In this document: positions 12,707 through 32,891 of the stretch, one piece after another
Numbering within the stretch: position 1 is the first letter of the stretch
Layout of the letters: each line of letters begins with the position of its first letter
Source: Eledone cirrhosa
Lineage: Eukaryota
Direction: 5' to 3'
DNA: 36,450 bases
Assembly: GCA_964016885.1 (NCBI GenBank)
Contig: CAXHJY010001453.1
Span: 1 to 36,450 of the forward strand
Position numbers and translations under genes: made by a program
Notes under the pieces: generated by a model
The model's input: the letters and a program-made list of their open reading frames with translations, nothing else
Told to the model about the DNA's origin: nothing
Databases searched by the model: none

Positions 12707-12835
12707 AATATGGTTTTATAAATATAGTTTCCATTTATTTAATATCATTGAATATTTACTCCAGGAATCTGTTGAGTGCGCTAAATCAGTTATAAACATT
12801 TATATTTATATTTGTCGGATTTCCAACAAATTAAA

Positions 12836-13376
12836 TATATATCTGCATATATATTTATATATACATATATATATATACATACATATATATTTACATACAC
12901 ATATATATATACATATATATATATACATACATATATATACATACATATATATACATACACATATATATATATATACACATACACATATATACATACATAC
13001 ACATACACATATATACATACATATACATACACATGCATACATATACATACACATGCATACATACACATACATACATACATACATATATATGTATATATAT
13101 ACATATATACAAATACATATATATGCAGATACATACATACATATATATATATGTATATATATACATATATATATCTATATAAATATATACATATATATAT
13201 ACATGTATACATATATACATACATGTATACATTATATATATATATATATATATATATATATATATATATATATATACATACATGTATATATATATATATA
13301 TATATATATATATATATATATATATATATATACATACATGTATATATATATATATACATATATATGATATATATAT
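12836..13376. repeat. Compound (TA)n/(TACA)n microsatellite
   Basis: Direct reading. Confidence 0.95.
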
Positions 13377-13850
13377 AACTTTGATAGCTGTCGGCCATGT
13401 CTAACTTAATAGCACCATCTCATGGCAGCGTTGAAGAGAGTAGAGTTTGAACTTTTCTAGTCGACCCCAATACTCCAAGATGATGTATTGGGAGATGATT
13501 CAATTTTCATAATACTTTGTTTCTTGTGAGGAGACCACAGTGGACAACAATATTCAAGATAGGTCGGACAAAAGTAGAGAAGAATAGAATAATGTTCCGG
13601 ATATCTCTCGACTGGAAAGTTTTGAGAATCCAGGGACACATGTTGCTGGCCATGTCAACTTTGCTGTTTATATGAGTCGCCCAGTTTATGTTGTTATCAA
13701 CAATTACTCCTAAGTCAATGCTACTGTTGCATGTCACGGGGTTTCACCTGAGAAAAGTGGATAGGAGATTTTTCAGCACTTAAAATGTCCTCAAAGTGGT
13801 ACAGGAGCTGCATTAGGCAGACCCTGTTAGTTGGAACCCATGTTAGTTGG
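13377..13850 (-). mobile_element. Degenerate, internally deleted CR1-group LINE 3' fragment
   Basis: Frameshifted IDLGVIVDNNINWATHINSKVDMASNMCPWILKTFQSRD and LEYCCPLWSPHKKQSIMKIES; shares GGCCATGTCTAACTTAATAGCACC and the AACTTTGA end with the copy at 21596. Confidence 0.88.
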
Positions 13851-14399
13851 AATTCAGCAGATTGTTGCTTTCAAGAAAGTTTTGTAGATCCACACACACA
13901 AATTAGCTGATTGAGCACACACATGCTTTTTCTCAAATCCATATTTTCTGTTTCTTCCCCTTCCCTGTCTCCTCGATCTTTCTGTTCTTTTATTTCTCAT
14001 TCTGTTTCCATTCTGTATGTGTATATATATATATATATATATATATATATATATATATATATATATATATATATATATATGAGAGAGAGAGAGGGGTAAA
14101 GTGGGGGAAAGAGAGTAAACTGAATAGCACAACAGCTTGTCTTCCACTCTAGGTCATCTAACAAGGGCTGACATGCTCTTTATTGATTGGGCTTTGTTTT
14201 CTGATTCACAGCATGCAATGTCCCATAAATTAGAGATGTTGCATATATATATATATATATATATATATATATATATATATATATATATGTATATGTACAG
14301 GTTTTTGTAAAAGCCGGTGTTGTGTTTCTTTATGTCACATAAATTGGTAGTTCGATAACTAGGGACCAAACATTTAACTACGGGTTTGCCATACATACA

Positions 14400-14485
14400 G
14401 ATGTTGATATGATTTACTCAATCCTTGAACTTATTCCAGCATGGCAATAGTCTAATTACAGAAACCAATATTAAAGATAAAAGAA
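14400..14485 (+). mobile_element. Probable SINE 3'-tail fragment
   Basis: CCAGCATGGCAATAGTCTAATTACAGAAACCAATATTAAAGATAAAAGA resembles, from memory, an octopus SINE tail; not verifiable within the window. Confidence 0.35.
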
Positions 14486-29599: not shown

Positions 29600-30420
29600 T
29601 CTGTAGTTTATGCCGTCTTAGTGACTCCTCAATTCAGGAAGTGACTTCCATGTCATATCACACAGTGAGCAGGTGAATTTGCTGCCATCTTGACTTTGAT
29701 CGGCGTGGCCTTCTTTGTGGTGACGTGCTAGCCACCAACACCAACCCCTGCAGAATGACACACCCTGGTATTGATACCACATGCAATATCAATTTATATG
29801 GAGGTATTCAAAAGTGTTATTTCCATGAGTTTGTCGTCTGCTATAGAACAGAAATCCAGCCCTTGACATACATACACGTCTGCATATCTCTACTTCTGGC
29901 TTCTATAAGAAGCAACCGTCTCCAAAAGATCCGGCTGGATCCTCAAACGAGACCAACCACTGTCCTGAATATATCCAATCATCTTGCTTGGGATCTACAC
30001 CTAGTTCTTCTGTCGGCTGGTTTTACCCGGAAAATCTGTCCAGCGATTCTTTCCTGAGACATTCAAACCACATGCCCATAGCACAGGTAAAATGTGTCTC
30101 TTTTAATCACCGTTCTTTGAGCAAACTTATCGACAACATTTAATATTTTTCCTTTGACACGTATGGCTGTTCGAATATATGGATTTCCGGGAACATGCTG
30201 GTACAACACCACTTTATTTTTCACGCTGATTGTCAGTCCAAACTCATCAAACGCTGACTAGCAGCAATACATCAGTGGTTGAAGAGCCTCTCCCGCGTGG
30301 CTATCAAGATCACAGTGGTATACATAAAGACCACGTATCAGTGTAATATATGTTTTTGATGCAGCAAGGAGTCGTCGGATGTTAAAGACTTGCTGTTGTT
30401 CAATAACGTAATATATCCAT
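29600..30420 (-). mobile_element. Degenerate RTE/BovB-like LINE (RT core remnant to C-terminal C2H2-like finger)
   Basis: VFNIRRLLAASKT...HCDLDSHAGEALQPLM...LTISVKNKVVLYQHVPGNPY...GKILNVVDKF (30400-30120); FTCSLCDMTWKSLPELRSH (29680-29620). Confidence 0.82.
29860..30090 (-). mobile_element. RTE-clade C-terminal fragment, possibly from a second RTE family
   Basis: YGHVV*MSQERIAGQIFRVKPADRRTRCRSQAR*LD corresponds to the W(Y/F)GHV.RM...R.RGRPRTRW.D motif. Confidence 0.65.
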
Positions 30421-32149
30421 CCATAAAGGCACATTTCCTATATATATATGTTCATATTCATACATCTATATTTACGTATATACACACGGTCAAATGCTGA
30501 TAACTAATGTCAGTATAAATTATAAGAATATATTAATCACAATTATTATTAACATACAATAACGGAATCACTATATTTATCAAGGTTGATACAAATATAT
30601 ATATATATATATTTGTAATTAGTTTATACACACACACACAAACACATACACACACACATATATATATATATATATATATATATATATATATATATATATA
30701 TATATATATATATATATATATATATGGTTGTGTGTATTATTAATATTATTACTATCAATATCGTTATCCTAATTGTTGTTTATTATTAACTACAACAACA
30801 AAATAATGGTAATAATAATAAAATTATCGGCAACTACAACATAAACAATAATATATTTTCTATTACCACAGGTGTTAAAAATTGTAATTCAATAAAAACA
30901 GTTAAAGTTTCATAAATATATTGATAACTTCAGTAATGCAAGCAATAACAGGCTGACATGCACACATGCAGATAAAACAATTAGGAAGTTTATAAAAGTT
31001 GTCAAGTATTTTCTTATTTTGTTTAAAATCCTCGAGATAAACAAAATGATATATAAAATTAGATTTAAAAGTAAAGCACTAAACACAAAACCAAGAGGTA
31101 GAAAGAGAAATTGTATGAATATGCATGCATGCACTAGATATAACAGCGTGAGCGCGTAAAAACTTTATATATATATATATATATAAAGTGTGCGTATATA
31201 TATATATATACGCACCGCACACGCACTATCTTAAAGGAGATTTCAAAAGTGATTCAGCTGAATCCCTCGAGCGACACAACCAGCCACAAAAAAAGGAGTG
31301 GAGAGGAGAATAAGAACTGATTACCCTTGACGATATTGTTTAGAAACGTACTCAACTGAGTAAAGACAAAGGATAAACCTTCAAAATCGTGAAAAATAAA
31401 CTAGACAGTAGGAAAGTTTTGGGGAATATCTGTTAGACACGCAGTGACTAACGACAGAATGTTTTAAGTCTGCATGTCTGACATATATGCGTAGCTTGTG
31501 AATAAAAAATTCAAGTGGTGTCGGTGGCCGTGGTGATCCATGCCAAACATGTTTTGTAATGTATCGTCTTATTGGCTAATCAACCAACGAGAGTAATTGT
31601 TGCTCAAAAGCATCCACCATTTTGTTTGCATATTTATTTATCGTTTCGCTTTCGAATCTTCCTCCTGTATTTCGTCAAAATATTTTTCTCGTTTTGCTAA
31701 GTTATATTGTTAATTTATATATGATTTTTTAAATTTATATTAACTATTTTTTTTTTCAGTTCGTTATAACATGCTTATAATATGAGATGTATCATATTTA
31801 CTTGTATATTTGTCCATATTATTGTTCTTTTTATGTTGGATTATTTTATTATTATTATCTTAGATTCTTTTTTTTATTATTATGTTAGACTATTTGTATG
31901 TAATATTTAATTTTTATTAATTCAACTATAACAATTATTATGTAAAATATATTTATTTAATATTGATTGTTTTTTGTAGTTGTTTATATTAAAAGTCTGA
32001 AAATATGTTTATACATCTTACAATAATATTTATAAGATCATTTATAAATAACAATTATATAATGTAATTACATTACAACAATAATTTATTATTAATATAT
32101 ATCATGTTTAACTAGAGTTATTACAAGCATTGCCTTAAAAAATTATTAA

Positions 32150-32595
32150 ACTAGACCTGAAAAATGCGCAAGCTCAAAGGAGCCACATAATGTTATAATA
32201 AACCTTCAAAAGTGTGGGACTAGAGTTGTTGCTCACAAATATTGTAATCATTATCTATCGTACACTCTGTGGCATCATTTTATAAAAAAGAGACTCATAA
32301 CGAACTCAAGACGACACGATAATAATTTAGATGAATTTATAATATAGAATTCGGTTTAAGTGCATTTCGTATTAATCATTAATAAACATCTAATATGAGA
32401 TATTGAACAGTAGCTTAAATAATTATTGTGTCGTCTTCAGTTCGTTATGAGTCACTTTTTTATAAAAAGATGCCACAGAGTGTACGATAGATAATGATTA
32501 CAATATTTTTGAGCAACAACTCTAGTCCCACACTTTTGAAGGTTTATTATAACGTTCTGTGGCTCTTTTGAGCTTGCGCATTTTTCAGATCTAGT
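32150..32595. mobile_element. MITE-like non-autonomous DNA transposon with ~180-bp TIRs
   Basis: Arms 32150-32329 and 32416-32595 are highly similar; termini (A)CTAGA...TCTAG(T); TA on the right and AA on the left (possible mutated TA duplication); 86-bp AT-rich spacer. Confidence 0.85.
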
Positions 32596-32697
32596 ATATA
32601 CGCACACACACACACACACATATATATATATATATATATATATATATATATATATATATATATATATATATATATATATATATATATATATATATAT

Positions 32698-32891
32698 ATA
32701 GTTTGATATAGAGATGGATTCTACAGGACGAGAACTGTTTCATTCTAAAGAAATCAACAACACTTTCCTGATGATTTCTTGTGAATGAAACAATGTTAGT
32801 CCTGTAGATGCCATTTCTATATTAAACTATGTTTGCACTCTACTAATCTGTTGAGTACTTTACTAACTGGTTACCTCCGATTGAACCTGGG
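32698..32891 (+). mobile_element. Small degenerate fold-back hammerhead element 4
   Basis: Arms about 32698-32756 and 32772-32830; CTGATGA(32768)-TTTCTTGTGAAT-GAAA(32787); tail ACTC-TACTAATCTGTT-GAGT; flanked by (TA)n. Confidence 0.68.

Follow-up and report, generated by a model that had tools for sequence, protein, structure and literature searches.

At four places in the stretch of DNA analysed here, a 36-kb contig of Eledone cirrhosa (CAXHJY010001453.1, positions 1 to 36,450, called the window below), the arms of an inserted element end next to a small bulged hairpin. From their sequence the four sites are judged to be the ends of Hydra-type Penelope-like retrotransposons, one of the four families (F4) being assigned by its motif, hammerhead core and anatomy alone. 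Full-length elements carry the hairpin twice, 76-97 nt apart, directly before the open reading frame (ORF) for a reverse transcriptase (RT) joined to an endonuclease (EN). The stem of the hairpin covaries, the ends of the insertions lie at fixed positions relative to the two copies, and the two inverted arms of an insertion, counted in one family (F3), are as a rule one of each kind, one with a tail and one without. We consider it likely, with a probability of roughly two in three, that the twin hairpins act in the element RNA as binding sites which set two RT starts, each about 6-7 nt on the 5' side of a hairpin. The host genome has a size of 3.0 Gb and is rich in TA microsatellites.

An earlier note on this DNA had described an ACTC…GAGT hairpin just outside the inverted repeat of four elements. 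All four were found again, at 12758-12777, 18632-18651 and 32837-32856 on the plus strand and at 26476-26452 on the minus strand, and the refined pattern matches the window exactly 4 times, whereas 100 dinucleotide shuffles gave 0.01 matches on average. Each hairpin lies about 45-70 nt past the end of a hammerhead core and opens a stretch, the tail, which is missing from the opposite arm; that arm ends, counted to the last matching base, 4, 5, 4 and 6 nt before ACTC in the four elements. Each element is a member of a dispersed family (F1-F4). Elements 1 and 2 are related to one another (alignment score 163 compared to a shuffled maximum of 39), and elements 3 and 4 gave no comparable alignment to elements 1 and 2 or to one another. 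The motif is thus present in all four elements as proposed, but they represent three independent lineages. Three other ACTC..GAGT pairs in the window, at 8444, 10358 and 16158, were rejected, having neither the bulge nor the RC ending.

The motif is RCTC-Y-(upper stem and loop)-R-TH-GAGY-RC, which folds into a stem of four pairs, a 2-nt bulge on the 3' side and then at least one further pair. Three of the window hairpins do have 12 nt between ACTC and GAGT, the fourth having 17, but the supposed 12-nt loop is neither a true loop nor general, since it holds the extra Y:R pair and the upper stem behind the bulge. The genome contains 160,483 matches to the motif against 1,333 for a reversed-pattern control. 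From the first 100 matches listed a detailed set of 87 was examined, the others being duplicates, nested or short of flank. Of these 87, 53 have T-A and 25 have C-G as the inner pair, which in the other 9 is mispaired or a wobble; the next pair is Watson-Crick in 75. Among 23 representatives of families, 22 are Watson-Crick at the first pair, 22 at the second and 17 at the third, counts that are inflated by relatedness. The sequence TGTNGAGT does not hold as a consensus, because A replaces its G in 59 of the 87 matches and in most relatives of element 4. A (TA)n run follows 25-100 nt downstream in 71 of the 87, compared to 18% of random windows; a strict hammerhead core is found upstream of 24 and downstream of none. 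Rfam has no family for the motif, and the miRNA matches found there are TA-repeat noise.

It should be noted that stem III of Hydra ribozymes is often formed by ACTC and GAGT (PMC8557442, File S2; this and the other publications cited by accession are used from the parts available to us). GAA directly before and a UH triplet after the stem are expected in such a case. A relic of hammerhead stem III was nevertheless rejected, because GAA does not stand directly 5' of any of the four window hairpins, and it is further disfavoured by the second hairpin, which mostly ends in GAGC. Hairpin 1 of the commonest family was also seen as the building block of tandem satellites, the units of which measure 63 and about 45 bp, at G000:C1:81256625-81259216 (L300-L302) and at C1:14.24-14.27 Mb (L277-L279).

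The assignment of the elements comes mainly from the family of element 3. F3 is young: its 25-nt anchor was found 9,949 times in a pattern search of the genome, and 131 of 131 scored protein matches are 99-100% identical. The copies L091 and L092 consist of an inverted arm, a pseudo-long terminal repeat (pLTR) with tail, an ORF of 800 aa, a second pLTR with tail and (TA)n, that is, the partial-tandem pLTRs, the adjacent inverted truncated copy and the tail at one end which make up the anatomy of EN+ Penelope-like elements. ORFs of 737 aa in F2 and 719 aa in the further family fam0 are 38-53% identical to each other and to that of F3. All three contain YRDD and a C-terminal IY..(Y/F)xG, read from these motifs as an RT and a GIY-YIG endonuclease; RWT or RWR and SDKT are present in the proteins, as are the CxCX5C linker, CxxC and CxH (regular expressions), and the CCHH two-Cys insert was found by eye to be absent. 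The Hydra clade of C-terminal EN+ Penelope-like elements is characterized by RW(K/R/T), DKT, YRDD, CxCX5C, a GIY-YIG-like domain, CxxC and CxH (Craig et al., 2021, PMC8557442), and our families share with it this motif set in a single ORF, the hammerhead core in the pLTR, the (TA)n targets, the inverted truncated copy and the one-sided tail. They differ from it in size: the repeat units are 3.9 kb in F3 and F2 and 3.5 kb in fam0, 3.5-3.9 kb compared to generally under 3 kb in PMC8557442, and the tails are about 60-95 nt compared to 30-40 bp. Neither the hairpin nor its occurrence as a twin is mentioned in the available passages of that paper.

Hammerhead core motifs, found by regular expression and regarded as putative ribozymes, are present in all four window elements; an Rfam search at the gathering threshold gave no match for hammerhead, and searches of Pfam and of solved structures with the F3 protein gave nothing relevant. 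Read-through copies of F1 run into related ORFs, most of them broken. At G000:C1:91476591-91487302 (L303) the commonest family forms at least four tandem copies of 3.54 kb, the fetched copies having long open ORFs.

The second hairpin, mostly of the form GCTC...GAGC, comes after the tail end where the tail continues into the ORF. It was found with a Hydra-type ORF downstream in F1, F2, F3 and at least five further families; in F1, 12 of 16 pattern matches read through to such an ORF. The twin pattern gives 1,668 matches in the genome against 166 for the control, satellites and chance neighbours included. A finished tail-bearing end does not contain hairpin 2, which is seen only in read-through templates. 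This copy, which also marks the other end of the insertion, could not be recognized in the earlier note, whose suggestion of a cis-element that fixes the end of the arm is otherwise supported by the clustering of ends across families and by the covariation in distant relatives.

For the positions of the ends 91 inverted arms were collected in five slightly overlapping sets, the window's own copies included. In 81 of them the end could be scored; 8 of the other 10 lack a repeat junction and 2, at one locus, bear the motif themselves. The ends cluster before hairpin 1 instead of being random, 64 of the 81 lying within 3-9 nt of it. A stop at 4-6 nt, proposed from the window, is found in 41 of the 81, and in general the offset is specific for the family, with modes of 7 nt in F1, 5 nt in F2, 4 nt in F3 and 5-7 nt in F4, blurred by TA microhomology. 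When the microhomology was treated as an interval and clean junctions were used, an offset of 7 nt was compatible with 53 of 60 junctions of tail-less arms (site 1), and an offset of 6 nt with 97 of 113 junctions of tails (site 2). Among the F1 site-1 junctions 8 of 11 lie at exactly 7 nt without any microhomology.

The two kinds of arm are combined in a regular way. Of 38 head-to-head pairs of F3, taken in genome order, 36 combine an arm that bears a tail with one that does not (p=5e-9 compared to 50%). The lengths of the arms follow no such rule: the 33 measurable pairs, which include window element 3, comprise 8 with a longer tail-less arm, 7 with a longer tail arm and 18 with arms of equal length. 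In that element the longer arm is the one without a tail, at about 1.6 kb compared to 0.23 kb (1568 compared to 128 nt between the anchors). Among unselected F3 ends none of 30 lies in mid-tail, after two indel variants had been re-read by eye. Two observations on the inner ends of the short copies can be added: in the F4 stubs (L031-L060) they cluster just before the hammerhead core, and in the F3 stubs (L321-L358) at a distance of about 160 nt from the anchor, which would suit an RNA whose 5' end is fixed there.

The motif is also found outside this genome. Six published Hydra consensi were inspected by eye, as far as they are given in the available material; it is present in Hydra-2_Amil and Hydra-2_Ajap, present twice in Hydra-1_Ajap and degenerate in Hydra-1_Crog, so that it occurs in 3 of 6 and as a twin in one of them. 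As a control for the clade six 8-mers were searched in the accessible part of the supplement of Craig et al., where 25 matches were obtained: those in Hydra consensi were full motifs in 4 of 4 cases, and those in Naiad or Chlamys in 1 of 21, all judged by eye, the one being single, in the middle of the untranslated region (UTR) and probably due to chance. From unrelated metagenomes 79 related loci were collected, 48 of them with a 5' flank. The motif stands before the ORF in 31 of these 48, as a twin in 17, and after the ORF in 17 of 58; in antisense it was not found in the flanks of the ORFs. A further 18 matches, 16 of them in close pairs, fall inside the match spans and are read as junctions of tandem copies. 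Altogether the metagenomes gave 84 sense matches and 1 antisense match. GCTC/GAGC is the usual form outside this genome, and among 72 distinct metagenome motifs the inner pair is C-G in 47, T-A in 24 and T-G in 1, and the next pair occurs as all four Watson-Crick types.

The following model would account for these results. In a (TA)n target the endonuclease would cut both strands. cDNA synthesis would be primed from one DNA end just before hairpin 1, which would give the tail-less arm, and from the other just before hairpin 2, giving the tail-bearing arm, so that the tail would be the stretch between the two starts. Each hairpin would bind the element's protein and place the start 6-7 nt 5' of itself, two protein molecules would be coordinated on the two hairpins, and the two cDNAs would then be joined head to head. 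With one start per target end, the model predicts one tail per insertion and independent lengths of the arms. Site 2 needs an RNA which extends beyond the tail and into the 5' UTR that follows, and the template would accordingly be a tandem or circular transcript; the tail arm of L091, which exceeds one unit in length, fits such a template. The same upstream sequence would have to be copied into both cDNAs, for which two RNAs, or displacement on a single one, would be needed. A more far-reaching version, which we offer tentatively and think rather less probable than its negation, is that the hairpins form an RNA operator common to the clade, on which two RT-endonucleases dock on one transcript, measure 6-7 nt and prime both cut (TA)n strands at once.

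Several points weigh against the model. The folding energies of the hairpins are weak, -2.0 to -4.7 kcal/mol, and the shuffles used for covariation ignore relatedness. Scoring was not possible for 227 site-1 and 89 site-2 anchor matches, because of diverged copies, cross-family matches or non-TA flanks, and the distances therefore rest on a clean subset; in F2 the chief site-2 class is 7-9 nt and not 6. Among the 38 F3 pairs there is one with two tails and one without any, and one F4 locus is tailed on both arms. For F4 neither hairpin 2 nor an ORF was found, read-through searches giving CA/TA-flanked ends or nothing. The motif was not seen by eye in the available consensi of Hydra-1_Obim and Hydra-1_Amil, the strict motif is absent from 17 of the 48 metagenome 5' ends, and the metagenome ends lie 2-11 nt before the hairpin, a looser fit. 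The tail-free F3 pair, L339 (G000:C1:35313900-35317550), is bordered by identical sequence on either side and resembles a large inverted duplication for which the insertion was the seed.

Of the three functions suggested in the earlier note, an RT recognition site, an endonuclease recognition site or a second-strand boundary, the first fits best. The endonuclease could instead read the motif on DNA, with the GIY-YIG domain recognizing a cDNA or an extruded hairpin and trimming a longer intermediate 6-7 nt before it, so that the tail is a product of resolution. Fixed offsets suit a nuclease, Watson-Crick covariation is possible on single-stranded DNA, the tail has been ascribed to EN-mediated resolution (PMC8557442), and the Penelope EN of D. 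virilis required the tail for recognition (PMC11167929). We nevertheless regard trimming as unlikely: in another clade the tail ends were mapped in vitro to RT start sites (PMC11167929), hairpin 2 is found in read-through templates and not in the finished tail-bearing end, and, as a weak argument, the T-G pair in the F3 hairpin 2 suits the sense strand.

It is slightly less likely still that the hairpins serve assembly of a ribonucleoprotein, transcription or translation, and that the ends are set solely by annealing of (TA)n to AU-rich patches. Hairpins are situated 15-65 nt before the ATG, hairpin 2 close to the start codon, and most junctions show 2-4 nt of TA microhomology, as annealing predicts; yet the F1 site-1 junctions without microhomology still lie at 7 nt, the other AU patches of the tail are left unused by the 30 F3 ends, and similar offsets occur across families with unalignable flanks. 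The second-strand boundary fares worst. A single cDNA would fold back, copy itself and stop at the hairpin, and self-priming of this kind has been proposed (PMC3846280); the near-equal arms in the 18 F3 pairs would agree with it. A copy cannot, however, exceed its template, which is what the 8 pairs with a longer tail-less arm, window element 3 among them, would require, and the presence of hairpin 2 at the other end is left unexplained. We consider fold-back very improbable, and at most a side route for symmetric stubs.

The two-start model has a close parallel in PAc, a Poseidon element from Anolis (Frangieh et al., 2024, PMC11167929), whose protein cuts and extends both target strands in vitro and begins reverse transcription at two internal sites which bound the tail, near the pLTR-ORF junction. 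Extension of both strands, two internal starts with the tail between them, the involvement of a stem-loop and a predicted dimer are common to the two cases. The starts in PAc, however, lie within a single AC-rich stem-loop inside the ORF, whereas here each end has a sequence-conserved hairpin of its own in the 5' UTR and is situated 6-7 nt 5' of it, and the available text of PMC11167929 reports no motif shared by families. The hairpins of our elements may also be likened, by role alone, to other RNA structures. Template boundary and recognition elements of telomerase, epsilon of hepadnaviruses and the 3' UTR of R2 are structured RNA elements which position an RT. The principle would be the same, a small structured RNA fixing the RT start, and the hairpin here differs in being doubled and in lying behind the start, on the 3' side of the template.

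The details of the window elements are as follows. Element 1 (F1) has head-to-head inverted arms at 12444-12753, 92.6% alike by self-BLAST, the left end of which joins (TA)n; its hammerhead core motif (CTGANGA...GAAA) is at 12652-12688 (+), hairpin 1 in the refined pattern at 12758-12779 (+), and the tail at 12754-12838 (+) is about 10 nt shorter than in most relatives (L001 compared to L002-L030). Element 2, from the F1-related family F2, has arms at 18244-18626 that are 98.5% alike, hammerhead cores at 18526 (+) and 18344 (-), hairpin 1 at 18632-18653 (+) in the refined pattern and a tail at 18627-18715 (+) which ends in (TA)n 7-9 nt before the hairpin 2 site of full-length copies. The short tail-bearing arm of element 3 (F3) is at 26393-26618 (-), with a hammerhead core at 26581 and the refined hairpin 1 at 26450-26476 (-). 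Its long tail-less arm, at 26618-28194 (+), contains the last approximately 73 codons of the ORF (26619-26838), the 3' UTR and a hammerhead core at 28094, and terminates in (TA)n 4-7 nt short of the position of hairpin 1. Element 4 (F4) is older; its short inverted arms, at 32698-32830, are about 82% alike, with a hammerhead core at 32768, the refined hairpin 1 at 32837-32858 (+) and a tail of about 60 nt at 32831-32891 (+) which ends in (TA)n.

A fifth hammerhead-like core (19723) is present in a stretch at 19450-19829 (+) which ends in (TA)n. The hairpin motif was not found in this stretch and it does not align to F1-F4; it is either a tail-less end or belongs to another clade of Penelope-like elements. 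Two separate palindromes were seen, one of 450 bp and 86% at 32147-32598, beside element 4, and a degenerate one of 283 bp and 77% at 17613-17895. Fragments at 21689-22411 (-) and 13499-13752 resemble the C-terminus of the RT of long interspersed nuclear elements (LINEs), which we take to be of the CR1/Jockey-like type, and related short ends occur again near 24175-24270 and 25779-25874. A tRNA-Phe(GAA) at 11655-11727 (-) adjoins a 190-bp repeat, possibly a short interspersed nuclear element, copies of which are also found at 6872-7059, 8250-8443 and 11447-11639.

A one-sided tail and an inverted copy are textbook features of Penelope-like elements. The Hydra clade, its one-sided tail and initiation at two sites have already been published. 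No description of the motif was found in Rfam or in the literature, including the available parts of PMC11167929, PMC8557442, PMC3846280, PMC4209133 and bioRxiv 10.64898/2026.07.22.740005, supplementary figures of which may bear on this; the earlier note did not recognize it as a described motif either. The hairpin is a real and probably undescribed cis-element of a known class, with a mechanism that we infer. In practice it is a cheap marker for the annotation of Hydra elements, with over 160,000 matches in this genome and a family missed by Pfam.

It is still an open question how Penelope-like elements, the closest relatives of the telomerase RT, build the inverted arms and the tail at one side, only one element having been studied in vitro. 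A motif of 20 nt which is doubled, kept across distant animals and situated at a fixed offset from both ends of the insertion makes this question directly testable, for which a young family with many intact ORFs is well suited. If the operator version of the model is true, the inverted arms and the tail would have a common explanation in Penelope elements. It would also supply an RT initiation signal that can be carried into any RNA, and a model of how RNA sets template boundaries in the group that is sister to telomerase.

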